From a virus, in IMG/VR virus record IMGVR_UViG_3300045988_177920, positions 1 through 64,000 of that record: DNA of 64,000 nucleotides. The stretch is one strand, 5' to 3'. Every line of letters begins with the position of its first letter. Positions within the stretch are counted from its first letter, which is position 1. Both the position numbers and the translations under genes were made by a program. Below the pieces are notes generated by a model. It saw nothing but the letters and a program-made list of their open reading frames with translations, did not search any database and was not told the DNA's origin. Shown here one piece after another: positions 13,485 to 61,895 of the stretch.

Positions 13485-13502
13485 TTATTAACAATTAAAA
13501 TA

Positions 13503-14432: not shown

Positions 14433-14480
14433 TAAGCTGATAATATTAATAAAGGACTTGTGAATATTAATTAATATAAT

Positions 14481-14488
14481 TATATTTG
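14481..14488 (+). promoter_or_regulatory. TAnnTTTG -7-like element inside a long-loop inverted repeat
   Basis: tatatttg lies 22 nt upstream of ATG 14511. It is flanked by the inverted repeat aaggacttg (14452-14460) / caagtcctt (14489-14497). Confidence 0.3.
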
Positions 14489-15257: not shown

Positions 15258-15777
15258 TTTTAAACTTTAGGTAGTAAAAGCTAGAGGTCCCAAAATTCAT
15301 AAAATAAGAAATTCTTGGGGAGTATATGATGCATATAAATGGATAAGAAAAAACAATTGGTTAGATATCGGTAGAACAATTACTTAGCATTAGTTTTATT
15401 TTATAATAAGGAATATTAATAAAGAATTAGTACAACAGTTCTTTGTTAAACAGTATATTAAATTCCCACATAAAATGGGTAAATTAGAATTAGCAAAAAC
15501 TAAGGCTAAAGTATCAATGAAAAACGGTAAACTTAAAATTAGTAAAATTATAAATTGGGGAGATACTTTAGAATACTGGAAAAACGACCAAGAAGCATTT
15601 AATAATAAAACCCTTATTTATAATAATGCATAGTATATATTTAAAATTATATATAGTAAATATAAAGCTAATTATAAAAACAAGCAGGTGTTTTTCTTTT
15701 ATCCTAACAGAACATTTAAAAGGCAGTTAGCTGCTTTATTAAAAGATAATAAAATAGATACATGGTTATATGGTTAA
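15250..15777 (+). CDS. virion-module protein, unknown function (175 aa)
   Basis: ATG 15250, four in-frame TAG, TAA 15775-15777. I checked the frame line by line. Confidence 0.5.
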
Positions 15778-16465
15778 TTATATATCAATAAAAGAAGTTT
15801 TAGATAACATATTAGCACATCCACTATTATAGGATGTAAGCCTGGAAAGAGCAGTTAACTATACACAATAGTTTATGCGAATAGTTGGAATGCCTAATAT
15901 GTTTATTGAAAAAACAGAAGAATTAAAAATAGAAGATTACAGGGCACAGTTACCTTGTGATTTTTACCAAATGATACAAGTTAGAACCTTGGTATAGCAT
16001 TGTGATACATAGTCTGAGTAGGTATTTGTTTATAGCACAGATAATTTTCATATGTCTTCTTATAAATAGGATTCAGGGTTTTGCTATAAATTACAGGGTA
16101 ATTGTATATTCACATCAATAAAAGAAGGTACTATAGAAATTTCATATCGGGCTATTGCTACAGACGATGAGGGATTTCCTTTAGTACCTGATAATGCAGC
16201 ATTTATTAGGGCATTAGAATTATATATAAAAAAGCAGGCTTTTACAATATTATTTGATATGTAGAAGATAAATGCTAATGTTTATCAAAATGTACAACAA
16301 GAATATGCATGGGCTGTTGGACAGGCATAGTCCAGCTTAGTTATGCCATCTATAGATCAGATGCAAACATTTACTAACAGTTGGAATACTTTAGTTTCCA
16401 GAGCTACTGAACACAGCAGAGGGTTTAGAACTAACAGTATACAAGAAAAGATAAGGAGGCACTAA
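15770..16465 (+). CDS. virion-module protein, unknown function (231 aa)
   Basis: ATG 15770, eight in-frame TAG, TAA 16463-16465. No track ORF covers it because TAG spacing is under 60 codons. Confidence 0.5.
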
Positions 16466-19400: not shown

Positions 19401-21222
19401 AGAATTTTTTTATGTAACATTTAATGGTACTTAGGAACAATAGAATATCTATGGATATGTATCAAAAATTAAAACAACATTTCCATTTAAACCTGGAGAG
19501 GGGGAGGAAAAACAGCCTTGGGCTAATAATGATATTGTTGGCTGTAGATTTCAAGAAGCCACTGTTGATAGCAGTGGTACTATAACTACTCCTACTTAGG
19601 ATACAATATAGAAAGCAGACTCTTTCTATTTTAGAAGAGATCTTTTATGGGAAAAGGTTCTTTATGAATATAATCTTCCTGATGTCTTTCAAGATAAAGA
19701 AAATAATACATATTTTAAAAAACCATCTCCTTATTTATTATTAGCAGAAATAGTAAGAAAGGGAGCAGACGATAAGAATAGTGATTACAATAAAAATTTA
19801 TTTGGGGGCACTTCAGAGTAGGCATTAAGTAATAATATATGGGTTCCTGCAGGTAAGGCGGTTAAAATAGAAGATTTTGTAAATAATACTAACAAGACAA
19901 TTCCATTAGAATTAACATATGGAGACTGTTTCTTTGGTAGATATGATTGTTTAAAAACATATGCTGCTAATTTAGATGACGAAAACTAGGTTGTAGAAAT
20001 AGGATCATTTCCATGCGAATCTTGGATTAACTTTGATGGTAGGTATGACAACAGAATTGGTATGTTAACTAATTGGACTACCAATAATACAAACTTTAAT
20101 AAGATTAATCCTGTATATTCATAGAAAGATAATTTCTTTAATTATAATATTCTTCCTGATGATTTTTATAATACTAATTATTTTCGTAATCAAATAACTT
20201 GGGGGTTAACAAAAACTGCAGGAGCTACTACTGATGTATGGACTAATATTACTTTAGCTAATACTATAGATGTAAATGGATCAAATGGAGCTATAACTGA
20301 TTTATTTTCATTAGGGGATAATATATATTGTTTACAAGACACCTCAATTAATTAGATACTTTATAATGATAGAGTTCAAATATAGCCTTCAGATGGGGTT
20401 CCCATAGAAATAGCTAATAGTGGAAAGGTTTCAGGTGTTAGAGTAATTAGTGACTCTGTGGGTATGTAGAATCCTTTTGGTATTTGTAAAGGAGAAAATA
20501 ATATTTATTTTGTTGATGGAATTAATTCTGGATTATATCAGTTTAACGGACAATAGGTGCAGAATATATCAACTCCCAATAAAATGTTTTAGTGGCATAA
20601 AGAGCATGACCTTTCTTCCAGGTGGTACCCTAGTTATGGAATAAACTATCCAGCAATAAGACTTTGCTATGATAAAAAATATAAGGATATTTATTATTTA
20701 TCTTAGGGAAAAGACAATAGTTTAAACTATTCTGCCTTACTTGGAACTTATGTTTCAAACTTTTCTTTATAGAAAATTTTAGGTATGGAAAGAGTAAATG
20801 ATGGCACTAAATCATACTTACTAGGATTTCAAACAACTGATTCTTATACAACAGAAGTACTCCAACTTTTTAATGCCGATGCAGTAATTAAAAATGCTTA
20901 TATAACTTTTATAAGCACTGACAAAACAGATGCTGTTAAAATATTTGACACTATGGATGTAGATGGAGGTGTTTATAAAGATAATAAAGAGTTTTATGAA
21001 GGTGAAAATATTTGTCCTGTAGAAGATGTTGCAGTAACTAATGATTATCAATCAGCCACAGGAAGTAATTTTAAAAAGAAATTTAGACTTTGGAGAACAT
21101 AGTTTCCAAGAGATAAAAGATAGAGAATTAGAAATCCTTGGACATAGATTAAATTAATACTTAATAATTCTACTATAGCATAGCCAAAAATAAACAGTGT
21201 AACAGTACATTATACTAAATAA
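16465..21222 (+). CDS. very large tail protein (1585 aa)
   Basis: ATG 16465 (TAATG overlap). I read all 1585 codons and found no TAA/TGA until TAA 21220-21222, with about 39 in-frame TAG. It contains track ORFs 18754..19050 and 20785..21102. Confidence 0.7.
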
Positions 21223-21266: not shown

Positions 21267-21299
21267 AATTATTTAGTTGCTGATATAAAGAACTTTATA

Positions 21300-21307
21300 T
21301 ATCTTTG
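21300..21307 (+). promoter_or_regulatory. TAnnTTTG -7-like element
   Basis: tatctttg lies 14 nt upstream of ATG 21322. Confidence 0.3.
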
Positions 21308-21321: not shown

Positions 21322-24177
21322 ATGATCATGAGTATAGACTTAACATAGTTAACATATAATTCTGGTAATAATTCTGAAGCCCTAAAACAAAAGGCTTTGT
21401 AGGAAGGGCTTCTATCACCTGATATTAAGCGCCCAAGTGTTAAAAACCCGATTAATTTTGGTGGTATAGTATAGGCTACTGCAGGACCTGCAAGTGCTTT
21501 AATTGGAAATGCTTTATCAGGAGGTCTTAATTCTGGAGTGGGAAGTGCTTTATAGGGATTAGGTAGTATAGCAAGTGCTATCCCAGGACCATGGGGGGCA
21601 GTAGCAAGCGCAGGCTTAAATGTTCTTGGTGGGATATTTAATAGGACAATAGGTGCTAAATTTAACGATAAGAATATAGCTAATATTTAGTCAGGTATAG
21701 ATGCTGCTAGAGGATATTAGCTAGACAGTAACATGAGCTTAGATTAGTTAGCAAATGAAATATCTTCTTCAAATCAAGCTATGGATTTTACTAATAAATA
21801 CGTAGGAACTGATGGTTGGTTTTCTAATAAAGTTGCTAAGAAAGCAAATGCTTTAAGACAAGCTTAGGATACTGCTTTTGCTTGGCAATCAAATGTTTAG
21901 GATAATGCAATACGTAATGCAACAATGAATAGTAATTAGTAGCTATAGTCAACATTTGCATATGGAGGTGGGATTAATATAAAACCCTCAAAAAGAGGTA
22001 CATTTACGCGTGCTGCTACAAAACATAATATGGGAGTGCAAGAGTTCGCAAATCATGTTTTAAATAATAAAGAAAACTATAGTAGTGCTATGATAAAAAA
22101 AGCAAATTTTGCTAAAAATGCTGTAGGATGGAAACATGCTTTTGGCGGTGACTTAATGACTAATGGAGCAGATTTTAGTAACGGAATATATTATATAGAT
22201 GAAGGTGGGACACATGAATAGAACCCAAATCAAGGAGTTCTTATGGGAATGACTTAGGATGGAACCCCTAATCTTGTTGAGGAAGGAGAAGTTATTAAAA
22301 TGACAGGAGGATAGCCTGATTATGTATTTCCCCATAGATTAAAATTATCTGTAAACAGACTTAAGGATTATGGAATAAAAAGTAAAAAAGCAATGCCTAT
22401 ATCTGAGGTTGCTATGAAAATATCTAAGGAATCTGAAGAAAGACCTAATGATCCTATTAGTATAGCTGGCAGAGAACATTTTCTTAATATGTTAATACAG
22501 GATACTGAAGAAAAAAGACTTTAGGAAGAATAGAAAAAAATGCGTCAAGCTTATAACAATATGACTCCTTCACAATAGGCAGAAGTACTAATGGCAGCTT
22601 AGCAACAATAGCAACAAGAAGCTTATAATTAGGAACTTGCACAGCAAGAATAGGAGCAACAACAGCAACAAGAAGGTTTACCTATATATTCAACATAGTT
22701 TGCTCAAGGTGGACATGTGAATTTATTTAAGGGTCCTGGAGATAAACCACAGTGGTTAAATGGAGTACAAAATATAGTTAATAATGTACTACAAACATTA
22801 TCCCCACAAGAATTTATAAAAACATATTATTCTAGGTATCCTGGAGGTGCAACTGCTAAATATAACTCTAATATATATGGAGATTGGAATAATTTTTAGT
22901 TTAATGGGGAACATCTGTATAATCCATAGACTAAACAATATGCTAATATATACAAGGATCCTAGATTTATTAATTGGTTAAAATCTGACGAGGGATTACA
23001 ATATGCAAAAGATTGGTGGGGAAATCCTAAGAATGCTTAGAATTACTTTTTAAGAAATAAAATAGCACCTACAATAGATGAATTATTAGGTAAAAACGGT
23101 GGAATAGGTTTAATGTATGATGCTCCAACAGGTAATACTTCTGCCTTTTCTGATGCACATAAATATGGTATGGATGCTCTAAAGTTTTGGTATAATAAAC
23201 TAAATCCACAGAAACAGGCAAAACCTAAATATGGTGATAGATATTATACATATACTTTAGATTAGCATGGTATGCCTTAGACTGCTTTAATTAATGACTA
23301 TAATACATGGTCTAAAGATCCTAATAATAGTAACTGGTTATATGATCCTTCTAAAACAAAAACAGGAGTTGTAGATGGAGATACTACATACACAGACCAC
23401 TATTTTATACAAAAACCTGCATCTTAGGAAAGAGATAATGCCGAAGTAAATCCTATAAAAAGAAGACCTGAGTGGTTAAGATATGCATCTGGTTTAGGAC
23501 TAGCTGCAGGAACATTAACTGATTTCTTAGGAATTACAAATAAACCTGATTATAGTAATTTTGCTGATATAAATGCTTCATTAAATAATAGTAGAATATA
23601 TCAACCTGTTGGATTTAATAAAACCTATAATTACCTTCCTTATACTCCTATTGATATTTAGTCTGTAGCTAATCAAATTGAAGCATAGTCTGCAGGAACA
23701 CAAAGAGCAATTATTAATAATAGTGGTATGAATAGAGCATCTGCTTTGGCAGGAATACTTTCAAACAACTATAATACAATAGGTGGAATAGGAAATGCTA
23801 TTGCATAGGTTAACAAAGAAAATCTATAGAATAGAATTGAAAGTGTCAAACAAGCAACTACTACAGATCAATTCAATTCATAGGGATAGTTAGATGCGGA
23901 TAAAGCTAATCAAGCAGCCCCTAATGCTAATAGATGGGAATACACTAAGAATCTACTAGCTGCTGCTGAAGCAAAACAAAAAATTAAAGATACTTCAGAT
24001 GCAGCAAAAGTAGCTAATCTATCAGGGCTTCTTAAATTTATTGGTGATCTTGGTTATGAAAATATGAATAGAAATATGATGGCTGGATTAATAGAATCAG
24101 GAGCCTCTGTATCTGATGATGTTCTTAAATATTGGGGGTATAATACTACTAAAAATAAAAACAAACAAAATGGATAA
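21322..24177 (+). CDS. large virion protein (951 aa) with a Gly/Ala/Ser-rich N-terminus and a poly-Gln tract
   Basis: ATG 21322, TAA 24175-24177, all codons read. It contains track ORFs 22030..22221 and 22717..22899. In the Q-rich tract at 22573-22674, TAG alternates with CAA/CAG. Confidence 0.65.
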
Positions 24178-24179
24178 TT

Positions 24180-25331
24180 ATGTATTTAGTAATAGATAAT
24201 AATTTTAAACCACTTTCATTTGATGATTTATATAAGCCTTATGGTAAATATATAGAATCATATGAAAAAAACTTGGATAAATAGGAAAAACTTCTTGAAT
24301 CTTCCTCTAAACTAGGAATGTTAATTGATTAGTATAGAGACCCTGTATAGTATGCTCAGTTGTAGGATTACAAAAATAGGCTTTTAAGCTATGCAGATGC
24401 TATGGCTAATGGACAAACTAGAAGAATTGTACGAGATATAAATTAGGCAAGATTAGATTATGCCGGAACCTTTAAACCTATGGAAGAACTAGCATAGAAA
24501 AGGGAAGAATTGGCTAAAGAACAAAGAGCGTTAAGGGCTTCGGGTAAAAGAGGTGTATACTTTGATAAAGATTATGGTACAATGTCCCTTTCAGATATGG
24601 CAAGAAGTAATGCTACTTATAATACTATTAAAGGTGAGGATTTATATACTGCAGCATTATAGTTTGCTAATTCAGAGTCTGGTAGGCATTTTATACATAC
24701 TATGCAAAAAGCAACAGGGGATCTTGCAGGGTATTTTTTTGAAAATACACAAAGAAGAGGATATACATCAGATGAATTATAGCAATTGATTAATACTGCG
24801 AATAAAAATTCAGAATTTGTTAAAGCTAGAGATAGAATACTTGATGAGTTTGGAGTTAAAAGTTTAAGTAAATAGGATTAGAATAGAGCTTTATAGAATA
24901 TAATATCTGGATTTCTTGATAATAATGCGTATGCACAAAGTACTTCTTATTCTGAAGATCCTACATTCTCACGTAATATGCAGGCAGCTTAGTTAGCAAT
25001 AAATTAGAGATAGATGAGTCTGCAAGAACATCAATATAATGATAATCGTTTTAACAGAAGATTAGTAAAATTAGAAGATTTATCTGGTGTTAAAAATGTA
25101 GAAGATATTAAAAAGACATTATCTGGTATGAAAGTTCCTTATTTTGAAGATGAAATTGTTGGATTTGATGGTAGTACAACAAAAAGATCACCATATGTTA
25201 TTGTATATGGTCCTGGTAATGATCTTAGTAGATCTTTTTATTATACTACAGATGGAAATCTTATTCCTATTGTTGCTAGCAATGCAAAAAACAGTAGTTA
25301 GAACAATAGTTAGAGTGGATCAACTGATTAA
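24180..25331 (+). CDS. virion protein (383 aa)
   Basis: ATG 24180, TAA 25329-25331, about 19 in-frame TAG. It includes track ORF 25014..25301. Confidence 0.55.
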
Positions 25332-25343
25332 TAAAAATTAATT

Positions 25344-28300
25344 ATGAGTACTTTTTATAATACAAATATAGATATAGCAGAATATAATAAGTGGGCTAAT
25401 AAATATGCAAATGATATACGCAATTTATCAGAGGAACAAAAGAAGAATGCATTTTTAAGGTACCAATATAGAATGAAGCACGGTGAAAGTGCATTAGGGG
25501 CTTTTGACAAAGCTAAAACTTTTGATGAAAAGGTTGCTTTATATAATGGATAGCAAAATATTAATTAGGTTCAACAATCAACTTCTAATACTTCCTAGTA
25601 GTAGACTGTTACTCCTAGTAGAAATAAGGGCACTTCAGCAACATTTTCAAACTCTGATGGCAGCACCTATTCTATTGCTTCTTTAGGGGAACCTGTAGAT
25701 GAAGAAATGGTTAATCCTGCTTTAAAAGCAAAATCTCCTTTTAGTTTAATAAATCCCTATTATCAAGGTGATTTAAATAATACTCTTGGAATAGATTATA
25801 ATAAGAAGATAGACGAATATCAACAGGTTACTTAGTAGTTAGAAAGTATAGGTAGTATTGATGCGCTTTTTAAAGATCCTGATATATTAAAAAATCCCGA
25901 TGCGGTTAAAAAGATAGCTTTATTGTATCGTAGAAAAGACACATTAGAAAAAGAAATCTAGGATGCAATGGCTATAAATTAGGCAATTGCTGATAGAAAA
26001 TTATCTGTAAATCAGCCTAAAGATATTTACATAAATCCTGAATAGGATGTTTATATAGGGAAGGACGGTAAATTTATTTTTAGTCCACATGCAGATAATG
26101 TGTATAAAGTTGGTAAGAAAAACGGTAGAGTCGATCCAACAAGTTTATTATAGAGTTTAGAATAGAAACATGCAGAAGATGTTGGTAATGCAATTGCAAT
26201 AGGTGTTGGTAGTAATGATTATAATCCTTATGCTACTTCTGTTTATGCATCTGCAAGAAAATCAGATTATGAAAGTAAAATAGCAAATGCAAAACATAAA
26301 AAAATTAAAGACTTAACTCCTAAAGAGTTTGAGGATTACATAAAGCAATATTCTGATTATAATACTACTTCACACGTATTATCTAATAAAGAGGCTAATC
26401 AATACAAGAAAAAAGCTGAAAGTAAATGGGAAGCATATTATAATCAAAATATTAAAGAAAAACAAGAAAAATTACAATATGTAAAATCAATAGCTCAAAA
26501 GACAGGATGGTATAGAAAAACTAGAGATAAAAAACTTGCAGAAGCTGCAATTGATAATAATACGTCAAATCCTAAGATTAAAGATTGGATGACCAGTGAA
26601 GACTATGATAAAGTATTGTATGCTTATACGGAAGCTTATGATGCAGCTCTAAGTCATGGTCTTTCAGAAGCAGAAGCAGAGGAGGCAGGGAAAAAAAGAA
26701 TTGCAGAAGAAGTAGAAGCCGCTGCATATAGAGATATGCCCTGGTATGAATAGTGGGGGCATGCCACTGTTTAGGCAGTTGACTCAACTATAACAACTGC
26801 TGCTTCTGTTGCTGGTATGGTAGGTTCTGCTCTTAATCCAGTCAATTGGTTTAGTGGAGAGTATGGTTATAGAGTTATGCATAATCCTTTATCTGAATGG
26901 GCTAGTGAAAAGATGGAGAAAGGTTTATTCACTTCTGATGAAGAATGGGAAAAATATGGTATAAATGCCTTTGCTAATCCCGATGATGTTACAGATTATA
27001 GTATAAGTAATTTCTTTACACATACACTGTCAGAAGCTTGGGGTCAAGGTGGTTTTACTTGGGGTTCTGCATTAGGAGGCAGAGCTTTAGGTTTAGCAAC
27101 TAGATATTTATCTAAAGGGGTATCTACAGCATTTAAAATACCCACTAAAATACAAAAGATGGCTGATATTGCAAGTAAAATCGAAAAACTTGAAGGTGCT
27201 GAAAAAAGATTTGCTAAAATCTAGAATAGAATTAATAAAGCTGAAAATCTAGTACATATTACCATTCCTGGAATTATTGGTACTAATGAGGGAATTATAG
27301 AAGGGCTACAAACTGAAAAAAATGTTCTTAGAGACGGTTATTCTGAATTAACAGATAATATATTAGGGTACTTACAGTAGAAGTAGTTTGATATTATTGG
27401 ATTACAAGAATAGGCTAAAAAAACTGTGGGCAATGACCCTGAAAAACTTGTTAAATATTACCTTAGTTTAGTAGAAGCCGGAGTTAATGGCGGGGATGAT
27501 CCAACATATTATAATATGTTTAAAGATGTTAAAGCCCAAATTGAAGATGCCGCTGCAACTGCAGGAACATAGAATCTTATGATGAACTCTATGATTAATG
27601 GTCTTTTTCATACATTAACTTCTGCAATGTGGACAACTAAACGTACTTAGGAAGCTTTACGTAATACCAGAGATGCAATTGCCAGAAAAGTGGGTAAAGT
27701 TAGCCCGAGACTTGAAAGGGTAATATCTACAAAATAGAAATTTATAGCTACAGAAGCTGCAGAAACAGGAAAAGCCGTTGTAAAACCTATTACTAGGTGG
27801 TATTAGCCTTATACAAGTTTTGCTAATGGTGTTTTAGGAGTTGCAATACCTGAAGGCGCTGAAGAGTATTTATAGTCTATCTCAGATGCTGCTGCTGAAG
27901 GAGGCGCAATGGCTAATATCCATTAGTTTATGAAAGAACGTTATAATGGTGGGTCTCCTGTTATTGGAGAAACTTTTGGTATAGAATGGGCAGCCGCAAG
28001 AGAGGCAGCTACTAATGCTATGGTTGACCCTGAATCTTGGAAATAGGCGTTTTATGGTGCATTAGGTGCTTTAATGCCCTCTCCCTTTTTAGGTCTTCGT
28101 AGTAAATATGTGTCTTATAAAACTGACAAAAATGGAAATCTTATTAGAGGAAAAGATGGTAAATATGAAACTACTATAAAATTATGGAATAGAAAAAATG
28201 CTGTAGATAGGGATGGTAATGTTATTAAAAATGAAGATGGCACTACTAAAAAAGAAAGTATCTTAAAAACTATTGCAAGAGCAGTTCCTTTTCAAAGCAA

Positions 28301-31300
28301 TGCTGTAATGCATTATAAAAATGTCCAGCAAAGAGCATGGGATAGAATTTCCTAGGCTAAAGCTATAGAAGATTGGATAAATGAAGATGAAAAGCATCTT
28401 GAGATGTTTAAGTCTATATAGGGAATTATTTCTGCAGGTGAAATCATAGAAATGTCAGAAAACTATGGTGCAGGTATGGAAAGAAGGGATGCTTTATTTA
28501 GAGGGCTTGTACACTCAGCACTTATGATCTCATAGTTAAAGGGCACTGCATATTATGATAGTACTATGCAGTTGCTTAAAAATATGTCATATGGAGAGAA
28601 TCTAACAGATGAATAGAAAGAGAAATTAATATAGTCTATAGCAGATCCCTCAATGTCTAATGAAGATAAATTAAAATTGGCTACAGATCGTGCTTCCTTT
28701 GTATTAGAAATGTTAGAGCAAATTGATGGTATAAAAGACAGTTTAGAGAAGCAATTAGGTATTCTAACTCCTGATTAGGCTGCAGGATTAGTTTATGGAA
28801 AACTTTCTAATGAAAACTTTAAGTATCGTCATAAGCAATTAGAGGATAGGATTAAAGATATTGCCTCATCCAAAGAGTTTACAAGTAGTAGAGCTAACGG
28901 TGTAAACACTCAAGAATAGGTTGATGATCTTGTTAAATATGGTAGCAAATCTATAGTAGATGCAAAAACTGCAGAACAAGAAAAAACATTAGAGAAGAAA
29001 CAAGAAGAATTAAAGTCTCTTAAAGAAAAATTAAAGTAGGAAAAGTCTAAAAAGAAAGTTGATAGAAAAGATACTTCAAAAATAAAAGAAGATATCACTA
29101 AAATTGAAAGCGAGATCTCTAATATAAATAAACAGTTAAAAATACTTAAAAATAGAAAATCTGCTAATAGTGATGAAATTGTTCTTAATGAATAGGAAAT
29201 AATGAGTCTTCCTGCAGTGCAAAGAGCAATGCTATTAAATTCAAATCCAAGCAATTTTTCTGAAGAACAAGCTAGAATTATAGAAAATGTTAAAGCTCAA
29301 GGTAAACTTATAGATCCTGAGTTTGATGATATTGTTAAGGATTCTGCAGTATTATTAAACAATATAAGAAGGTCTATGATAGAATATTCACTAGCTCTTA
29401 AGAATCCTACTATAGTTAGTGAATTAGGAACTAGAGAAGCACGTATTGCTCAAGCTCAATACAGACAACTTAGGTATGAATCTATAGCTAAAATATCTAA
29501 TTATGAGGATTGGGTAGCCGCTGTAAGAGAAGCAGAATCTAATTCTGATGTGGATCAAGTAACATTACAAAGAGTATTAAAATCTATAAATCCAAAATTT
29601 TATGAAAGGTATAAAGAAGGTAGAGATGATTTACTTACTATGATGTCTCTTATAGCTAATGATCCTTCCCTCGAAACAATAGATGATAGACAACAAGAAT
29701 TATTATATAATACTTTAGAGTTTTTAAGAGCTAAAGGAATTAGTCTTACTAATAAAGATGCTGTAGTTAGTGCTTTATCCGAAATTAATGAGGAAACAGG
29801 AAAAACATTAATTCAAGAGTATATTGAATAGGCAGATGAAAATATACAAAATGAAAATGAAAAGATGGGATTTGATTCTTTAGAAGAAATATTTACTATA
29901 TATAACGCTGTAGTTGATGCCTACCAAAAGGAAATAGAAAGAAGAGTTAAAGAAGCAGAAGCAAATAAACCACTACAAGACCCTGTAAATAGTAAAGAAT
30001 CTAAAGATGTTGTTAAAAACAAATCTAGAAAACAAAAAGATAGAGAATATAAAAAAGCAAAGAAGGAGAATGAGAAAGCAAAGAAAAAGAAGAAAAAAGA
30101 AGAATTAGAACAAGCCGAATAGGAGAAACAATAGGAAAAACAAAATCTAAAAACAGCTCGTACCTTTATCTATAATAAAATAATTACAAGTAGAAAGCTC
30201 AATGATTAGCAAAGAAAGGACCTTACAAAGGTATTTGATGAATCTCAAGTAGGACATGAAACTGAGGAAAGCCTTTTATAGACATTAAGAAATCAAGCAA
30301 ATAAACTTATTTCTGATAATGAAGAAGGTACTGCAGAAGCATCTAATGGGCAGGCTATTCTAGATATTTTAGATTCTTATGATGATTATAAAGAATCTAG
30401 AAAAATCTAGGAAAAAGCTAATCAAAAAGAGGAAGTAAAAAAATCATTAGCTAGAAGAGTTTTAGAGAAAATAAGTGGCAGTTTAAGACAAGCATAGATT
30501 GATACAATGTTGGATAAAGAGGAAGATGCCGTTGATATAAATAATAGAAGATGGCTAACTACTCAAGATGATTTTGTTGAAATCTCGAGATTGGCCAATT
30601 CCTCTACAATGGTGGGGCTGTCCATGGAAGAATATATTAATTCAGGAAATGCCTCTCCATCAATGCAACAATATTGGGAGGATAATGAGGTCACAAAATA
30701 TCTATAGGAACATTCTGATGCTATTCATGGTAAGACTATATATTTCTATTCTCCTAGTGCTATTACAGAGCGTAGAAAAAATAATATTGAAGAGCTGGAT
30801 GCTCCATTAGTTGCTATTATTGAAGATGAAAATGGTAAAGTAGTACTTGAAACAAAAGACGGTCCTAAACATTTTTAGCCTATAGCTATAATGCCAAGTT
30901 CTTTTAATTCTACATTAAGTGCTGCAAGAAATACTAAAATGAAGGTTGGAAATTCCTATGGAATAGGAAGGTCTTTTTATATAAGAAGGAATATTAAAGG
31001 TACTGATCAAATTATATAGGATGAAAACGGTAAAAATATTACTAGTGTTATTAAGAAAATTTCTTCAACAAGACGTGTAATATCTTTAGGCTCTAATTAT
31101 ACTCCTTCCTCAAATAGAGTTGTTAAAGAGTTATAGTTAAAAGATCCTAAGTTTGAAAATAAAACTATAAGAGAAATCATGAAAAGTCCCGAATATTTAA
31201 AGGCCAGACGTGATTTTATTGATAGTTATGTTAGAAAGTATCCTACAGGAGAGGAAACCACTGATTAGATAAAAGCTATGTAGGCCCGTTCATTTAGAAA

Positions 31301-33491
31301 TGAAGGTGGGGTAGATGAAGGATTACATGATTTTACCAGAATAGATGAAGCTAGAAGCAAATATACTGATAAATCTCTGGCTGAAGTTGTTGAAGCAATA
31401 TTAAATGATCCTGAAGCTAATTATGATCAGTTATATGCAGGATAGGATGCAGAAGATGGATTTAATAGTAGAGCCACCTATATAGGGAAAAGGATTCAAG
31501 AAACATTTAAAAATGTTTTTAAGTTCAACTCTTTATTAGGTATGAGTTAGACTCAATAGCAAGAGAAACTTCAAGAATATGAGAAAGCACTTACTAGAGC
31601 ATTTGTAAATGCAAATGGTATATTCTTTAATCCAACTTTATATTCTTTTAAAATTTTAGTATAGGAAGTTGGAGAAGGAGAAAATAAAAAAGCATAGGCT
31701 ACAATCTTTCTTATAAATAACTCTAAACAACAAAGTAAAGTTTTAGCTACAGTAGAAGAGGGTGAAATATCAGATAAAGATACTGCCAAATTAATGGCGA
31801 ATTTCTTTTATAATGGAGGCTATTTAAACAGTGAAGGAAAGGAAGTAAAAACTCCTGAAGGAACTGAAGCCAAACCATTAATTGAGGGAGTAAATTGGCA
31901 GTTAGATGATAAGGAATTAGCTCCTTTTGCAGCAGGATATACAGCAAAAGATAAGAAAGAAATAGATCATGCTAGAAGTTATTTAGCACGTGCTTACGAT
32001 GATGGCCTTTTAGGAGAAAGAGATAATAAGATTGAAGTTAATGTTTCTTCAGTATAGTTAATGGCTCCTGAGGGCAGTGATAAAATACAGCAAGATACTT
32101 CTATAAAAGTAACAAATAAAGATAATGCAGAATCTAATTCAACCAGTTCAAATGCAGCGTCTACAAAGAATGGTTTAGTAGATTCTGATACAGGAGCTTC
32201 ATTGGATGGGCATAACTCTTAGTAGGAAGAAGCAAGATAGTTACGTGAATAGCAAAAAGCATAGTAGGCTTTTGAAGCATTAAAAGAAGAGGCTAAAAAT
32301 TGGGCACTTTCAGAGAGTCGAAAATTCTATGAAAGAAATGGTAGTAATCCACATGCAAGAGTTACTTCAGTAATTGCAGCAGATAGGTTTGCTGAAAGAG
32401 ATAAAGATGGTAAACCTAAAAGATTTGATGAAGAAAGTTCTTGGGCAATCCCTAGTTCAGCAGTTGGTAATGCTGTTGATGCATTTTTAAGAGATGTTTT
32501 TGAAGGAGTATATGATGGTTTATCCGAAACATAGCTTCAAGAAAAATTATCTAAACTCCCAATTGCTCAATATTCAGAGTGGAGAAATCTGTATAATTAT
32601 GTTTCAAATTTTAGGGATAATCTTATTAGAAATGGTTATCATTTTGAATCTATTGGCTTTACTGTAAATGGTATACTTCCTGTATATCAAAATGGTAAGC
32701 AGATAGGAACACTTCCTGTAGCAGGAACATTGGATTTAATAGCTTATGATGCAGAAGGTAATATTATTATATTTGATTTTAAAACTCATCATAATTCTAA
32801 TATATCAGAACTTAAAGGTAAATGGGCGAGACAAACTTCTGTATATAAAACTTTAATACAACAGTTTTTAGAATCTAAAGGTATTTAGGCTAATTTTGCA
32901 AAAAATAGTTTAAAGATTTTCCATATACATTCTGACTATGATACTGCTAAAACTAATAGCTATAAGATAGCATAGAATGGTACTTTAATTTATAGACAAA
33001 ATGAAAGTACTCCGTATACTGAATATAAATCTACTAGGTTTAAAGAGGCTGGGGAAATAAGTATAGCTGAAGTAGCTTCATCAATTTAGTTTGATGATTT
33101 ATTAGAAGAAGAAAAGGCATTAGTTAAAAGAGATGATAATGAACCTCCATCACCTCCATCACCTCCAAAAGGCCCTGAAAATAACGGTCCTGAAAATACC
33201 GGACCTCAAAATACCTCTAATACTGAAAATACAGAAGAAACACCAAAAACAACTTCAAGTAGAAGAGGAAGAGGAATGGTTAAAAAACAAAGAGGAGGTT
33301 ATGCAACTACAAATGCTTTAAATGACCATGTAAGTCTTGAAATAGGAACATAGATTTCCGGTGAAGGAACTGAAAAAATGAAACAAGAAGCACAAGAAAA
33401 GCAAGAAAAGATAAAAAAACTTGGAATAAATGAAGAGGCGTTTTGTTAGTTAAGTAAGGCATCACAAGAACAATTAATGGGATGTGCATAA
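25344..33491 (+). CDS. giant virion / ejected-cargo-like protein (2715 aa) with a C-terminal PD-(D/E)xK nuclease-like domain
   Basis: ATG 25344. I read all 2715 codons and found no TAA/TGA until TAA 33489-33491. It fuses track ORFs 25344, 26817, 28074, 29202, 29865, 30507 and 31794. AGTLDLIAYDAEGNIIIFDFKT (about 32724-32786) and QTSVY (32832-32846) fit the RecB/Cas4-type D...(D/E)xK...QxxxY pattern. Confidence 0.7.
33144..33215 (+). repeat. in-frame short tandem repeats encoding a Pro-rich linker
   Basis: cctccatca x2.5 encodes PPSPPSPP. It is followed by three roughly 15-nt units, ggNcctgaaaataNc, encoding GPENNGPENTGPQNT. Confidence 0.7.
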
Positions 33492-33496
33492 ATAAT

Positions 33497-33535
33497 AAAG
33501 GCGAGAGTTATTAACCCTCGCCTTTACTTTTTTAT
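33497..33535. terminator. bidirectional terminator at the convergent junction
   Basis: Stem aaaggcgag / ctcgccttt (33497-33525) has T-runs on both strands (acttttttat on +, tttattattt on -). It lies between stops at 33491 (+) and 33541 (-). Confidence 0.6.
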
Positions 33536-46589: not shown

Positions 46590-46611
46590 ATTTATATTTT
46601 ATTTAATTGCA

Positions 46612-46619
46612 CAAATTTA
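46612..46619 (-). promoter_or_regulatory. TAnnTTTG -7-like element upstream of the RNAP gene
   Basis: The minus strand reads taaatttg, 22 nt upstream of ATG 46589. Confidence 0.3.
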
Positions 46620-46671
46620 CTAATTAATTTCTTATAACACAACTATTTCTAAGTAAATGTATATCTTACTT

Positions 46672-46726
46672 ATAAAAAAAATAAGGGGGCAAGAAGCAGC
46701 ATATGCTACAACTTACCCCCTTATTT
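46672..46726 (-). terminator. intrinsic terminator ending the replication-module transcript
   Basis: The minus-strand RNA reads AUAAGGGGG...(agcauaugcu palindrome)...CCCCCUUAU followed by U8 (forward a-run 46674-46681). Confidence 0.65.
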
Positions 46727-46738
46727 ATAGTGGTTAAT

Positions 46739-46915
46739 CTAATTTTTATTTATTATAGAAGCAAGAACTTTACATGCTTCCTTTATTTTATTTATATCAG
46801 TATTACTAACATCTTTAAGTTCACCAAATTCCTGTTCAAACAAATAGGAATTTATTAAATTGAATAACTTAAGAGTTGCTTTTTTCTTAGTATTTGTTTT
46901 ACAAGTTATTCCCAT
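46739..46915 (-). CDS. small ORF (58 aa) ending in TAG, unknown function
   Basis: ATG 46915 overlaps the TAA of the upstream gene (TAATG). The ORF ends at TAG 46739-46741, with an in-frame TAA six codons later (46721-46723). It is below the track length cutoff. Confidence 0.25.
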   Translation of the reverse strand: MGITCKTNTKKKATLKLFNLINSYLFEQEFGELKDVSNTDINKIKEACKVLASIINKN

Positions 46916-47364
46916 TATGCAAAATTGTTACTTACACTAAAACGTAAATTATCTATATAAAATTCTCCCAAAGTTACTGGTATACCATGAAATATAGCAC
47001 ACGACTGACGCCAATGTCCTCTTCCAGGATAGTCTTTTTCATATGTAATCGCATCATAACCATCCCAGAATCCATTTAAACAATCGTTCCAAAATTCTTC
47101 AAAAGTAAATTCTCGTTTATATTCATCGATGATTTGCCCTGACTTAAGCCATTCTATCAAGGATTCTTTTGTAGGTTCAAAGTATTTGAAGTCATTGGCA
47201 TCCCACAGGAATTTCCAACCTTCAGATCTTTTACCAATATGAATATCTTCAACTTCAGCTATAATATCTCTGGCTTCATCATACTGATCATTATTGATTG
47301 CATCAATAACCTCCTTTTTTTGTTCAGGAGTCATATATTTTTTAATATAGTAATTCGTTCCCAT
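46915..47364 (-). CDS. hypothetical protein (149 aa)
   Basis: Intact track ORF with a TAA stop. Contains the motif IHIGKRSEGWKFLW. No function recognised. Confidence 0.6.
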   Translation of the reverse strand: MGTNYYIKKYMTPEQKKEVIDAINNDQYDEARDIIAEVEDIHIGKRSEGWKFLWDANDFKYFEPTKESLIEWLKSGQIIDEYKREFTFEEFWNDCLNGFWDGYDAITYEKDYPGRGHWRQSCAIFHGIPVTLGEFYIDNLRFSVSNNFA

Positions 47365-47365: not shown

Positions 47366-47632
47366 TTATATTATAATTTCGGTTTTATTATTTCTAGTAA
47401 TAAATGCTTTAGTAAGGTGTTCAATAACATCTGAAGAAGAAAACTCTATAATAGATATTAATAATGCTTTTCTAAATTTCTTAGAAAGTTCTTCATAAGG
47501 TTTATCCATTATAAAGATTTTATTATTCTCTATTTTCAGACTCAATCCTTTTGAATTGTCCATATATATGATTGTGTTCTTTTCCATCAATAAGTATTTT
47601 ACAGAAACTATTTCTAACACAAATAATAACAC
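47366..47632 (-). CDS. hypothetical small protein (start uncertain)
   Basis: Track ORF. It overlaps 47523..47720, so the true start is probably an internal Met (MEKNT or MDKPY). Confidence 0.35.
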   Translation of the reverse strand: MLLFVLEIVSVKYLLMEKNTIIYMDNSKGLSLKIENNKIFIMDKPYEELSKKFRKALLISIIEFSSSDVIEHLTKAFITRNNKTEIII

Positions 47633-47720
47633 CTTCTTTACCTAAATCATTATTTTTAGGTCCGGTTTTTGTTATTACAACTTTCTCTCCTACATTCCAA
47701 AGTTTATAATTTTTTGCCAT
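47523..47720 (-). CDS. hypothetical small protein (65 aa)
   Basis: Track ORF with a TAA stop. Possibly a KOW/SH3-like small beta-sheet protein (GEKVVITKTGPKNNDLGKEGVII). Confidence 0.45.
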   Translation of the reverse strand: MAKNYKLWNVGEKVVITKTGPKNNDLGKEGVIICVRNSFCKILIDGKEHNHIYGQFKRIESENRE

Positions 47721-48108
47721 ATAAATATTCTAACATTGATTCCCATATATAGATATTATCTGTATATGATTCATGAGATTCTTTTGAATTTGATCTATCT
47801 TCTGTAGATTTAGCATAATTGAATACCCACATTATATGATATTTCCTAAATAAACAAATATCAATATATGGATCCCATTCATGTCTAAACATGCGATATT
47901 TAGTTTTCCAACCTAATGCAGAAGTATTAATACTTATAATCGGATTATAGTATTTTTTATTAACAGGCATACCGAAGAACCAAATATCTTTACCATATAT
48001 AAAGTGACATTTAGGTCTGGGAAATTTCTTTCTAGCTTTATACCATGGATAAAATGGATTATGATATTCTTCCCATATCTTTAATTTCTTTTTTAACTTC
48101 TTAAACAT
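47704..48108 (-). CDS. hypothetical protein (134 aa)
   Basis: Track ORF with a TAA stop and a basic N-terminus. Confidence 0.55.
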   Translation of the reverse strand: MFKKLKKKLKIWEEYHNPFYPWYKARKKFPRPKCHFIYGKDIWFFGMPVNKKYYNPIISINTSALGWKTKYRMFRHEWDPYIDICLFRKYHIMWVFNYAKSTEDRSNSKESHESYTDNIYIWESMLEYLYGKKL

Positions 48109-48159
48109 ATTGATACTTATTTATTGATTAATACAAATCTTCTGAAACCAAACAAGGTA

Positions 48160-48486
48160 TTAATCTTTTTTATTGCTAATTTGACCTGCCTTTTTAGCTA
48201 TTTTATAAGCTTCGACACGATTAACAAATCGTCCTTTGGATGTGTAAAATCCTTGTGCTTTAGGAGATTTATCAATTAGGTCCTTGAAGTTATGTATAAT
48301 ATTATGGTGGCGATACCCTAAAATACATAGATGATCGTCACTAAAATCTGCATTATCATATGTAGGCTCTTTTCTCTTTATAGCAGCGCATAATATGTGC
48401 TCATAGGACTTCTTTTTAGAAGTATTAATATAAAATATTATTAATACCCCTAATAATATTATGTTAAGAATTAACGATATAACCAT
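48160..48486 (-). CDS. membrane-anchored hypothetical protein (108 aa)
   Basis: N-terminal TM helix ISLILNIILLGVLIIFYI. The C-terminal domain has ILGYRHHNIIH...QGFYTSKGRFVNRVEAYKIAKKAGQI. Confidence 0.55.
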   Translation of the reverse strand: MVISLILNIILLGVLIIFYINTSKKKSYEHILCAAIKRKEPTYDNADFSDDHLCILGYRHHNIIHNFKDLIDKSPKAQGFYTSKGRFVNRVEAYKIAKKAGQISNKKD

Positions 48487-48488
48487 AT

Positions 48489-48944
48489 TTATTTATCTGA
48501 AAAACTTTTTTGAGTATAATCATCATAATTATCAGAAGGATGACCTTTTTCAAAACCCCTTTTATTTCTTTTATATAGACTTCCATCAATATCTAATGTG
48601 CCCGATTGCCAACAAGATTGAATATCCATAGAAAACCATTCACCATATGGAGTTCTTGTAAACCATATTATATTTGTATCATATTCTGGTATAGAACAAC
48701 CCACAAAGAAATCAGTGGTTTCAGCATAAAGTTCAGGGTTATCTTCATGTTTTTCTTTTAGAATATTCTGTAATGTCATAGGCATTTCACAGTCATATCT
48801 ACTATTAAAAGCATTTACAATATAGTATTCTTGACTATAAGGAATTATATCTGTTACCTTAGCTTCATAACACCGAGAAGGTGTGAATCTTCCACTATCA
48901 AAGAAATGATAGATTCGCTCTTTTTCAGGAATGGTTGTTTTCAT
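48489..48944 (-). CDS. hypothetical protein (151 aa)
   Basis: Track ORF with a TAA stop. Confidence 0.55.
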   Translation of the reverse strand: MKTTIPEKERIYHFFDSGRFTPSRCYEAKVTDIIPYSQEYYIVNAFNSRYDCEMPMTLQNILKEKHEDNPELYAETTDFFVGCSIPEYDTNIIWFTRTPYGEWFSMDIQSCWQSGTLDIDGSLYKRNKRGFEKGHPSDNYDDYTQKSFSDK

Positions 48945-49120
48945 ATACTATATTTGATTAACTCAGAAGATAATGGAAACACTTTTAACCATTGAATTTC
49001 GCGTTTTTCTTTAAGGCGATTTATGGTAGTTTCAACATCATCTAAAGATTCACAACATTCACAACTAATGTTTACATAAAAAACATCATCTGAATATCTA
49101 TAAATTATTATATATTTCAT
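48941..49120 (-). CDS. small Cys-containing ORF (59 aa)
   Basis: ATG 49120. TGA 48941-48943 overlaps the next ATG (ATGA). MKYIIIYRYSDDVFYVNISCECCESLDD... It is below the track cutoff. Confidence 0.35.
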   Translation of the reverse strand: MKYIIIYRYSDDVFYVNISCECCESLDDVETTINRLKEKREIQWLKVFPLSSELIKYSI

Positions 49121-49135
49121 ACTATTAGAGTATAC

Positions 49136-49291
49136 TCATATTACAAAGTATTTATTATACAAATCTTCAGGTACAAAATATGCAGCATTACTCTCTGAAT
49201 TAATAGAGAAACCTGTATATACTCTACTTTCATATTCAGGGTCTTCCATTACTAACTGAATATCAGGCCATTCCACTAATATATATTTCAT
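49136..49291 (-). CDS. small ORF (51 aa)
   Basis: ATG 49291 overlaps the upstream TGA (ATGA); TGA 49136-49138. MKYILVEWPDIQLVMEDPEYESRVY... Confidence 0.3.
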   Translation of the reverse strand: MKYILVEWPDIQLVMEDPEYESRVYTGFSINSESNAAYFVPEDLYNKYFVI

Positions 49292-49530
49292 ATTTCTAAG
49301 GTATATTCATAAACATTATCGTCGCACTCGTCACAATGATATATAAATTTAGGGATACCATTCAATTCAAGAAAATCAATAATCATATCTTGAATGCTTG
49401 AATTATTACCATATTTATCAATTAAAGATTTAAGTATGTTTTTTTGTTCTTGTAGGGTAAAATCTTCAATTTTTTTATTATCAATATCCAGATTATACGC
49501 CATACAACCATCAGTATATGTTAGTTTCAT
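49288..49530 (-). CDS. hypothetical protein (80 aa)
   Basis: Track ORF with a TGA stop. Confidence 0.5.
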   Translation of the reverse strand: MKLTYTDGCMAYNLDIDNKKIEDFTLQEQKNILKSLIDKYGNNSSIQDMIIDFLELNGIPKFIYHCDECDDNVYEYTLEI

Positions 49531-49561
49531 ATAAATTTATTATAATCCATCTTACAATTAT

Positions 49562-49864
49562 TTACTTTTTATTACTTCGAATTTCTTTTTCTAATACACG
49601 AGTTATTAAATCAAGATTCATTTTAATTTGCTTATATACATCCCATTTCTCCTCTTTACCTGATGGTGGCCAATCAGATATAATTATTTCATATTCACAT
49701 CGTGACCACCATTGATACATAGAATTTGATTTAACAAATTCAACCATTTCTTTATGGGTTTTAGGTTTAGGGGATGCGTTTTTATATCTATCGTAAAGAT
49801 AAGGTATTATATCGTAAGGAACAAATTTACCATTATCTTCAATTATAACATTAAAACTATTCAT
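49562..49864 (-). CDS. hypothetical protein (100 aa)
   Basis: Track ORF with a TAA stop. Confidence 0.5.
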   Translation of the reverse strand: MNSFNVIIEDNGKFVPYDIIPYLYDRYKNASPKPKTHKEMVEFVKSNSMYQWWSRCEYEIIISDWPPSGKEEKWDVYKQIKMNLDLITRVLEKEIRSNKK

Positions 49865-49890
49865 TTATTAATATTATTATTTTTGTTTTT

Positions 49891-50217
49891 TTATTGTTGT
49901 CGATTAATAAGTTTGGTTATGGTTAAGCGAATAATGTCCATAACTGAATATCCCTTAGACGCCAGATTGGCCATTTCGGGCGAATGGACAATGTCATTTG
50001 CAATGTCTTCCATTCCTGCAAGGACATCAATAGTTAAGTCCTTAGCACCGCAAACACGGTATATATCATTAAGATGATCTGCGTTGGTCGTGCTTGCAGA
50101 CATAGGTCCGTGGTGGCGAATATACCATACACCATCCCGCAGGTAGTTTAGATTAACAAGCCTACCGACAGGGATGTATCGGCGGCCTGCTTTGCGATAA
50201 ATATTTTTGTCTGTCAT
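49891..50217 (-). CDS. hypothetical protein (108 aa) in a locally GC-enriched segment
   Basis: Track ORF. Its DNA is visibly richer in G+C than its neighbours (for example gcgttggtcgtgcttgcagacataggtccgtggtggcg and atcggcggcctgctttgcg). Confidence 0.55.
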   Translation of the reverse strand: MTDKNIYRKAGRRYIPVGRLVNLNYLRDGVWYIRHHGPMSASTTNADHLNDIYRVCGAKDLTIDVLAGMEDIANDIVHSPEMANLASKGYSVMDIIRLTITKLINRQQ

Positions 50218-50480
50218 AATAAACTTAATTTATTTTCTAATCGTGCTTGATATTTTTTAATAGCACTCATAATATCAAGAAGTAGATCATAATCATACCT
50301 ATTTAAAGACCAAGTTTTCCAAGTATAGACATTTTCTTTATTACTATTTACCTTTAAAGTAATATTTAAATCTTTCCTATCTTTATAATCATCTAATGAT
50401 TTACAAAAATCGATAGTTTTAATAAGTTTATCTGCTTCTTTAAGAGCTTCTTGTTTTTGTTTGTATTCTTCTATAGTCAT
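50214..50480 (-). CDS. hypothetical coiled-coil protein (88 aa)
   Basis: Track ORF with a 4-nt overlap with the upstream gene. Confidence 0.5.
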   Translation of the reverse strand: MTIEEYKQKQEALKEADKLIKTIDFCKSLDDYKDRKDLNITLKVNSNKENVYTWKTWSLNRYDYDLLLDIMSAIKKYQARLENKLSLL

Positions 50481-50513
50481 TATTATTCTATTTAGTGTTG
50501 TTACATTATTATA

Positions 50514-50759
50514 TTATTCAAAAATTAATATAGTTCCGCTTTCATCTATATCTATAGATTTTAATACTTTGCCGTCTATTTTAAATTCTCCTACAGCCAT
50601 GAAAGGACCTCCAGGAGGATCTACAGCGTAATAAGTTGTATTATCCTCATTATATATAAGTCGACAATAATCCTCATATTGAGCATGAAGTCTATATTTA
50701 TTATTTCCCAGATATTCTAAATAATTATTTGATCTGTCGTGTGTGGGTAATTTAACCAT
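50514..50759 (-). CDS. hypothetical protein (81 aa)
   Basis: Track ORF with a TAA stop. Confidence 0.5.
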   Translation of the reverse strand: MVKLPTHDRSNNYLEYLGNNKYRLHAQYEDYCRLIYNEDNTTYYAVDPPGGPFMAVGEFKIDGKVLKSIDIDESGTILIFE

Positions 50760-50763
50760 AATT

Positions 50764-50803
50764 ATAAAAAATATGGGGAGGAGAAATTACTCCCCCTCCC
50801 CCC
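50764..50803 (-). terminator. G/C-rich hairpin plus U-run (internal terminator or attenuator candidate)
   Basis: The minus-strand RNA reads ...GGGGGAG uaauuu CUCCUCCCC auauuuuuuauaau, between genes ending at 50812 and starting at 50759. Confidence 0.35.
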
Positions 50804-61418: not shown

Positions 61419-61866
61419 TGGCTAATTTAGCATCTTCTTCAGATCTAAATAATGCTATATTAGAGTACTTTCCATGTTCAGTGGAGGTTATCTCACATAT
61501 AGTACCATCAAACAGGCTTATACAATAAAGTTTAGGACTTTTTAATATATGATCCTCATACTTCTTATCCAGATCTATTGCTATTTGTTTAAGCACTAAA
61601 GAGAAGGTAATTGCAATATTAACTTCTTTTAGTTTATCTAGAACTCCAAGAAGTTTTTCAGGCTTCCATTTAAGTTTAGCAGCTAAATTGTCAATTGCTG
61701 TACTTAAAAGTCCTAAAGAAGAAGGCTTTTTATTGAGTTTTTTATCAATATACTCACTTGCCTTTTGCGGATTAACTATTACATCAAAAAGAAAGTCTTC
61801 AAATTCTTCTTTTGTAAAAGTTATTTTAGAAATTGTAGTTTCCATAATAAAATTAATTTTATGCAA
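61372..61866 (-). CDS. hypothetical protein (164 aa)
   Basis: Track ORF with a TAA stop. Confidence 0.5.
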   Translation of the reverse strand: MHKINFIMETTISKITFTKEEFEDFLFDVIVNPQKASEYIDKKLNKKPSSLGLLSTAIDNLAAKLKWKPEKLLGVLDKLKEVNIAITFSLVLKQIAIDLDKKYEDHILKSPKLYCISLFDGTICEITSTEHGKYSNIALFRSEEDAKLAIEALEPFYKEMFPDE

Positions 61867-61895
61867 AGGTAATAAATAATTTTTAATTACAGATA

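Follow-up and report, generated by a model that had tools for sequence, protein, structure and literature searches.

We analysed a stretch of 64,000 nt of viral DNA (positions 1 to 64,000 of IMG/VR record IMGVR_UViG_3300045988_177920; this whole stretch is hereafter called the window), with attention to the short gap at 46.6-46.74 kb that lies, on the minus strand, between a block of replication genes and the genes for a putative virion RNA polymerase (RNAP). The window is part of a crAss-like phage (Crassvirales), a relative of DAC15, cr126_1 and crAss001, which are all Steigviridae/Asinivirinae, and this phage reads TAG as glutamine in part of its genome. The results make it probable that the boundary between genes readable under both codes and genes recoded with TAG coincides here with an ancestral operon boundary, and that the switch from one code to the other is made elsewhere, by a suppressor tRNA with the anticodon CUA, tRNA(CUA).

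The window is AT-rich, with a GC content of about 30%, and consists of three blocks, in which the following open reading frames (ORFs) are arranged:

1-33491, plus strand: ORFs that are long solely when TAG is read through
46589 to 38883, minus strand: first giant ORF (RNAP ORF1), putative virion RNAP, homologue of crAss001 gp50, 2,568 aa, 56 in-frame TAG, the first at codon 16
38880 to 33541, minus strand: second giant ORF (RNAP ORF2), homologue of crAss001 gp49 by position and alignment, 1,779 aa, 33 in-frame TAG
63870 down to 46915, minus strand: replication and nucleotide-metabolism block, about 35 closely packed ORFs

The 17 kb flanking the window were taken from the ENA assembly ERZ28595906, scaffold_199 (93,398 bp), which is 100% identical to the window across an overlap of 11.5 kb.

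The replication block is readable under both codes

The 32 genes called between 63870 and 46915 on the minus strand comprise 5,417 codons, among which in-frame TAG occurs 0 times, compared with 159 CAA or CAG codons for Gln. At the TAG rate of the RNAP block about 73 TAGs would be predicted among these 159 early Gln codons, and the probability of finding none is about 1e-43. Off-frame TAG occurs in the replication block at 2.7 per 100 codons, near the 3.0-3.6 of the rest of the window; therefore, the depletion is specific to the reading frame. TAG is also avoided as a stop codon, since it ends none of the 32 genes, as against 65 of 642 upstream genes (10%) in standard-code relatives (P about 0.03). 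The replication block is thus dual-coded, that is, it is read in the same way under the standard code and with TAG as Gln. The 9 kb beyond the window are also free of reassigned codons, except for one gene end with the sequence TAG-TAT-TAA.

According to PHROG matches, and Pfam matches on the identical contig, the products of the block include DNA polymerase A, ThyX, dUTPase, NrdD/NrdG, an HNH endonuclease and an exonuclease, as well as a RuvC-like resolvase, a nucleotide kinase and a ThiF-like protein.

The RNA polymerase operon and the structural genes are densely recoded

Downstream of the gap the two giant ORFs together contain 89 TAG in 4,347 codons, so that TAG makes up 0.46 of all TAG, CAA and CAG codons. 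A preliminary description of the window, made from the letters only, had placed both blocks on the minus strand, with no in-frame TAG upstream and dense recoding downstream starting at the 16th codon of the RNAP gene; the ORF map and the codon counts bear this out, and the first TAG on the early strand is the stop codon of a small ORF directly before the gap (see below).

The assignment of the giant ORFs to RNAP is based on tblastn alignment to annotated phages and on a catalytic motif. RNAP ORF1 matched the "putative RNA polymerase" of crAss001 (27.7% identity, E 1e-45) and an ORF of DAC15 (45.7%, E 3e-156), and at its residue 1597 (positions 41801-41787) it carries the sequence DFDID, which is conserved in the alignment and fits the catalytic motif DFDxD. 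No match was obtained for either giant ORF in the PHROG search, and a sequence search of the PDB with the catalytic region returned noise only. RNAP is packaged in the virion in crAss001 (PMC8375218) and in phi14:2 (10.1101/2020.03.07.982082), and by analogy the RNAP encoded in the window would be packaged as well.

When TAG is read through, the RNAP ORFs align end to end with their homologues in DAC15 and cr126_1, and the structural ORFs are likewise intact only with TAG as a sense codon. Opposite TAG, the most common residue in standard-code homologues is Q, found at 22 of 116 aligned positions, which is 4.8-fold over background. We therefore concluded that TAG stands for Gln here, in keeping with the published code-15 crAss-like phages.

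The RNAP operon is a discrete unit of 13 kb, which ends at the following predicted element:

33495-33535, both strands: bidirectional terminator where the RNAP unit and the structural strand converge (-20.8 kcal/mol on the minus strand, -15.8 kcal/mol on the plus strand)

Recoded genes flank this convergent strand switch at 33.5 kb on both sides. On the plus strand the ratio of TAG to Gln codons is 0.19-0.28 in the units 129-4656 and 4887-13484, and 0.46-0.49 from 14.5 kb on.

A predicted terminator and a predicted promoter occupy the gap

The elements found at the junction, together with two further promoter matches in the window, are as follows:

46739-46915, minus strand: small ORF of 58 aa, whose ATG overlaps the upstream TAA (TAATG) and whose stop is the TAG at 46741-46739
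46674-46726, minus strand: predicted intrinsic terminator, a hairpin of 15+5 bp (46726-46680) with a U8 tract (46681-46674)
46612-46642, minus strand: predicted promoter of the Bacteroidota primary-sigma type, -33 element TTG (46642-46640), spacer of 20 nt, -7 element TAAATTTG (46619-46612)
21277-21307, plus strand: second full promoter match, TTG-N20-TAnnTTTG, 15 nt before the ATG of the unit 21322-33491 (TAG/Gln 0.46)
14458-14488, plus strand: third full promoter match, 23 nt before the ATG of the unit 14511-21222 (TAG/Gln 0.49)

The hairpin has a minimum free energy as RNA of -32.4 kcal/mol (z = -6.5), none of 200 shuffled sequences folded as well, and with its T-run it is the strongest such element in the window, in agreement with the preliminary description, which had proposed a hairpin-plus-U8 terminator here. 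It was detected by a purpose-written scan for hairpins followed by T-runs, since the standard terminator scan overlooked it because of its internal loop. The TAG stop of the small ORF lies 12 nt before the stem, and the next stop in frame, TAA, lies within the stem base. The gap between the small ORF and RNAP ORF1 is 149 nt if measured from the TAG and 131 nt if measured from the TAA. The preliminary description had assigned the code boundary to one intergenic region of roughly 300 nt; the boundary does fall within a single short gap, but half of that region is coding, as it contains the 58-aa ORF.

The TAnnTTTG element reported earlier ahead of the RNAP gene is present as TAAATTTG, 22 nt ahead of the RNAP ATG at 46589. 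The motif by itself occurs at chance level in the window (95 found, 99.9 expected); therefore, its significance rests only on comparison with relatives. The full pattern TTG-N19-21-TAnnTTTG has five matches in the window, three of which are intergenic and lie 15-23 nt before an ATG, namely those of the RNAP operon and of the units starting at 14511 and 21322. These three promoter-led units are the three most TAG-dense of the window (TAG/Gln 0.46-0.49). The match at 21277-21307 follows a terminator at 21.26 kb, and the step in TAG use along the plus strand was observed to coincide with the canonical promoter at 14458-14488. A scan with the sigma-70 consensus gave counts equal to those of shuffled sequences and is uninformative in such AT-rich DNA, and the whole window has no Rfam match at gathering thresholds.

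We also noted a box with the -7 element only, TACCTTTGca at 61864-61871 on the minus strand, 19 nt before the ATG of gene 61845 and without the -33 TTG. It is nearly identical to the -7 region of the RNAP promoter in some relatives and may be an internal promoter of the replication block. Its presence led us to reject the proposition that only recoded units carry host-type promoters.

The junction is conserved in standard-code and recoded relatives

Relatives were obtained by searching viral contigs with an alignment of the RNAP N-terminus, which yielded 49 related loci; an alignment query was required, as the search with a single RNAP N-terminus protein gave no matches. The RNAP gene is free of TAG in 48 of the 49 loci and recoded only in L007. 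Of 47 loci, the window itself included, 46 have a TAnnTTTG box 28-42 nt ahead of the RNAP ATG, and a hairpin with T-run of -12 kcal/mol or lower directly follows the upstream ORF in 33 of 46 related loci. Alignment of 29 distinct promoter regions on the box gave the footprint TTG-N20-TAnnTTTGCA, which by sequence is the pattern of a Bacteroidota primary-sigma promoter. According to Bayley et al. in 2000, the Bacteroides sigma-A consensus is reportedly -33 TTTG and -7 TAnnTTTG. The element of the window resembles this consensus, and the middle and late host-RNAP promoters of phi14:2 and other crAss-like phages (10.1101/2020.03.07.982082), in its two-block motif, its spacing and its position ahead of an RNAP homologue, and differs from the consensus in that its -33 element is gTTG rather than TTTG.

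When crAss001, DAC15 and cr126_1 were read directly, the same layout of terminator and promoter was found. The order of replication genes, small genes, a gap of about 140 nt, gp50, gp49 and a convergent gp47-like ORF is common to these three phages and the window. The gp51/gp50 junction of crAss001 and the corresponding gaps of DAC15 and cr126_1 share with the window the gene order, the gap length of about 140-150 nt, a GC-rich hairpin with T-run that directly follows the upstream stop, and, 30-40 nt ahead of the RNAP ATG, the sequence TTG-N20-TAnnTTTGca. They differ from it in that the standard code is used throughout, with 0 TAG in the RNAP gene, and in that the hairpins are weaker, about -16 to -20 kcal/mol compared with -32 kcal/mol in the window.

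In the recoded relatives the boundary has the same position. Locus L004 represents the window's own species (99% identical). The recoded loci L007/L140 (RNAP 58% identical to that of the window, 30 TAG in 1,600 codons), L151 (35 TAG in 1,402 codons) and the lightly recoded L201 (9 TAG in 2,623 codons) all have RNAP ORF1 as the first recoded gene, and the genes upstream of the gap need no read-through of TAG. Recoded relatives with TAG-requiring genes upstream of the junction, which would have spoken against the preliminary description, were thus sought in these lineages and no counter-example was found. The junction of L151 contains a terminator, whose hairpin is of -18.8 kcal/mol, and a full promoter; in that of L201 the terminator is strong and the -7 region degenerate. 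A comparison of the window with L007 gave an identity of 90-92% for the gap and of 55-80% for the adjoining RNAP DNA, and two changes in the inner stem keep the pairing.

The terminator and the promoter are therefore elements of an ancestral operon boundary and not a recoding device, since they also precede RNAP in about 45 standard-code relatives. The proposal that the code boundary is a genuine, conserved transcription-unit boundary is in line with these data, but the further proposal that the gap houses whatever separates the two translation regimes is not, as the same hairpin and promoter occur where no recoding is found and tRNA(CUA), the single component of the code change that could be identified, is encoded elsewhere. 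We suggest that the junction predates recoding and that it is a functional boundary which marks the switch but is probably not its cause.

A suppressor tRNA gene is located far from the gap in relatives

No tRNA was found in the window, in its 17 kb of flanking sequence or in L056/L057. A tRNA(CUA) gene was found in three relatives, at L061:8303-8376, L142:3300-3371 and L068:7688-7761, in each case at the head of the structural strand and about 1.6-2.3 kb upstream of a GroES-like gene. The genome of the window has the same GroES-like gene, and in two of the three relatives the protein is 95-96% identical to it; a tRNA(CUA) gene is accordingly expected upstream of it in the genome to which the window belongs. 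A full host-type promoter at the divergent region precedes the tRNA(CUA) in L061 and L142. Most likely, then, the switch lies away from the gap and acts through a suppressor tRNA(CUA) encoded by the phage at the head of its structural strand.

Next to phage tRNA clusters we observed tRNA-like genes with an anticodon loop shortened to 5 nt (L059:8552-8619, L142:2983-3048 and L061 at about 7975-8045), none of which has a CUA anticodon. One of these genes scored 44.9 bits with the Rfam tRNA model and was overlooked by ARAGORN. The gene at L059:8552-8619 was considered as a hidden suppressor and rejected, because its loop reads UAGUA/AGU and not CUA.

The small ORF before the terminator ends in a conserved TAG

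The TAG of the small ORF is the sole TAG in a gene's frame on the 17-kb early strand of the window. If it is read as Gln, five more codons follow up to the TAA at 46723-46721 at the foot of the hairpin, giving a product of 64 aa. This TAG, at codon 59, is conserved in L004, L007 and L140; in L007/L140 a second TAG follows in frame, and ribosomes that read through would traverse all of the hairpin before they met a TAA in the U tract. The small ORF has no PHROG match, gave no matches when viral contigs were searched with it as a single protein, and has no detectable homology to the gene that directly precedes the terminator in DAC15 or cr126_1.

Other genes of the early strand were seen to end in TAG with a TAA 1-5 codons further on, namely the DnaB-like gene at L056:3174-4358, outside the window, whose end at 4350-4358 reads TAG TAT TAA, the gene at L151:5672-6070 and several in L068 and L059. 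Such recurring tandem stops fit compatibility with both codes, and the TAG of the small ORF looks like a tolerated stop with a backup.

Other features of the window and its relatives

Two further elements of the replication block are as follows:

50775-50803, minus strand: predicted internal intrinsic terminator (-20.3 kcal/mol with T-run)
46915-47364, minus strand: gene of 149 aa without assigned function, the last clearly standard-code gene before the junction

The strong internal terminator suggests that the replication block is divided into at least two transcription units. Its core is collinear between lineages, with 85% identity as judged from the identity profile of the window and L007. 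The stretch 47400-50800 on the minus strand, between this terminator and the gene starting at 47364, contains about 12 small TAG-free ORFs. The window and L007 share no homology there, although on either side of it they are 80-90% identical; the stretch resembles a hypervariable accessory cassette. Homologues of the 149-aa gene (74-86% identity) were found in unrelated phage contigs of about 130-150 kb and in a T4-like context (L003, L005, L141), and the gene appears to be horizontally mobile. It was a poor anchor for the retrieval of relatives, as most of its homologues are in the unrelated phages of about 130-150 kb.

On the plus strand, a hairpin with T-runs on both strands at 13500-13535 looks like another bidirectional terminator. 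The major capsid protein (Pfam Crass_capsid) is encoded in two pieces in the region 6048-6275, 6360-7106, 8027-8809 and 8937-9491, which are split by a TAG-free ORF of 248 aa resembling HTH_38, followed by a TAG-free NUMOD4/HNH ORF. These inserts are probably intron or homing-endonuclease insertions, and they avoid TAG despite their recoded surroundings. RNAP ORF1 is uninterrupted in the window, whereas in several relatives it is broken by an ORF of 215 aa (L007:14940-15587, L140:15715-16362, L151:11640-12287 and L006:18238-18885), annotated as LAGLIDADG in L140 and L006. The large terminase gene at L057:1841-5095, outside the window, contains an intein with Hom_end_hint and Hom_end domains.

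Interpretation and alternative explanations

We envisage the following course of events. The operon for replication and nucleotide metabolism would end at the strong intrinsic terminator in the gap at 46.6-46.74 kb, and the 13-kb RNAP operon would start from its own promoter for the host RNAP, of the Bacteroidota sigma-A type, and end at the terminator at 33.5 kb. Sense TAG codons would have built up only in the late and virion units, that is, in the RNAP, head, tail and lysis genes, while the replication genes would have remained readable under both codes; with TAG thus confined, the code boundary would come to coincide with an operon boundary that already existed. However early or late the RNAP mRNA is transcribed, ribosomes would halt at its codon 16 until tRNA(CUA) accumulates.

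Several points weigh against this interpretation. In crAss001, gp50 and gp49 are "middle" genes like the replication genes (PMC8375218), which leaves the role of the terminator-promoter pair open. That the two elements function as such in this phage is a prediction from their sequence and conservation, and the suppressor tRNA is attributed to its genome by way of relatives. TAG density is uneven among the late units (0.19-0.28 versus 0.46-0.49). The replication block may itself have host-type promoters, as suggested by the -7-only box at 61871-61864, so that the association of host promoters with recoded units is not a clean rule.

We consider it unlikely that the gap is a timing device, in which the terminator blocks early transcription and the promoter fires late, so that RNAP mRNA would be absent until recoded translation has been established. 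The combination of a strong terminator with a separate promoter would suit such a role, as would the transcription of the RNAP module of phi14:2 by the host RNAP after the replication genes (10.1101/2020.03.07.982082), and in the two closest recoded lineages the hairpin, at -32 and -33 kcal/mol, has about twice the stability found in any standard-code relative (-20.7 kcal/mol or weaker). However, the promoter matches the plain host consensus, shows no additional operator and does not differ from that of standard-code relatives, the recoded L151 has an ordinary hairpin of -18.8 kcal/mol, and in crAss001 gp50 and gp49 are grouped with the replication genes in the 10-30 min class (PMC8375218). 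By the last observation a division into early and late transcription across the gap is not established; the gap therefore need not separate temporal classes, which favours gating of translation by the suppressor. It is very improbable that the replication block was lately acquired from a standard-code phage and that the boundary is a recombination scar. It is true that crAss-like phages exchange replication genes, for example by DNA polymerase switching (PMC7886860), that the 149-aa gene adjoining the junction is common to unrelated phages and that the cassette at 50.8-47.4 kb varies by lineage; but four recoded lineages, whose RNAP is about 25-58% identical to that of the window, share the boundary, the core of the block has stayed collinear and highly similar between lineages, and the avoidance of TAG even as a stop (0/32 versus 10%) is what would be expected after a long stay in a recoded genome.

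A suppression-sensing attenuator at the small ORF likewise has little chance of being the explanation. Without the suppressor, ribosomes would be released at the TAG, 12 nt before the hairpin, and the terminator would form; with tRNA(CUA) they would be sent past TAG59, the hairpin would melt and transcription of the replication operon would enter the RNAP genes. If this were true, transcription would receive direct feedback from the change of genetic code. The only in-frame TAG of the early strand does sit exactly at this hairpin, it is kept at codon 59 in two lineages whose differing second stops still lie in or past the hairpin, and the terminator is unusually strong in the lineages that have the small ORF. 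Nevertheless, these are only two lineages and are not independent, the RNAP operon has its own promoter 40 nt later, which makes read-through unnecessary, a stop 6-14 nt before the hairpin is the usual layout in standard-code relatives, about 10% of whose upstream genes end in TAG anyway, and a TAG with a TAA 1-5 codons later recurs at early genes away from terminators (L056:3174-4358, L151:5672-6070). An ancestral operon boundary that marks the code boundary, with the switch made by tRNA(CUA), thus remains the interpretation that we prefer.

Comparison with known systems

Block-wise recoding of TAG to Gln (code 15) in crAss-like phages was reportedly described by Ivanova in 2014. It has since been stated that reassignment is for the most part a feature of late genes and that the genes dependent on read-through of TAG include those of RNAP subunits (Yutin et al., PMC7886860), and recoding has been proposed to time the translation of late and lytic genes (Borges et al., 10.1101/2021.08.26.457843). 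The Mgcod preprint describes dual-coded early blocks and short "isoforms", states as a general rule that the code changes where the coding strand does, and places Sup-CTA at the 5' end of the recoded strand in code-15 phages (10.1101/2022.06.29.495998). Middle and late genes of crAss-like phages have promoters for the host RNAP, with motifs upstream of RNAP homologues and tRNA genes (10.1101/2020.03.07.982082); in crAss001 gp50 and gp49 are grouped as "middle" with the replication genes and gp47 as late (PMC8375218).

The window resembles the published code-15 crAss-like phages in its TAG-free, dual-coded replication genes, in its densely recoded late and virion genes including the RNAP subunits, in the alignment of TAG with Gln, in the position of the Sup-tRNA(CUA) of its relatives at the 5' end of the structural strand, and in a few early genes with short C-terminal "isoforms". 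It differs from them in that one of its two code boundaries lies within a strand, at a terminator/promoter gap, and in that its recoded set forms two separate transcription regions and not one cohesive unit. The generalisation drawn with Mgcod does not hold at this boundary, since the minus strand carries the genes on either side of it. That late genes of crAss-like phages are recoded in blocks is thus already published, and what is new here is the boundary within one strand and its exact mapping. The junction provides a case, at base-pair resolution, of a boundary between dual-coded and recoded genes that follows operon structure and not the coding strand; Mgcod, as a code-segmenting tool that snaps to strand switches, would misplace it by about 13 kb. 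Since the junction is common to the cultured standard-code phages crAss001 and DAC15, the terminator and the promoter are directly testable there.

A further parallel is given by coliphage N4 and phages like it, in which a virion-packaged RNAP is made late for the next infection cycle; the same parallel has been drawn for Crassvirales in a review (PMC10136315). In the window RNAP, a "transcription" gene, is recoded like the structural genes, which fits a protein packaged for the next infection, and late synthesis would be expected for a polymerase that is a virion protein. The difference is that N4 shows no recoding and that its RNAP is single-subunit and T7-like.

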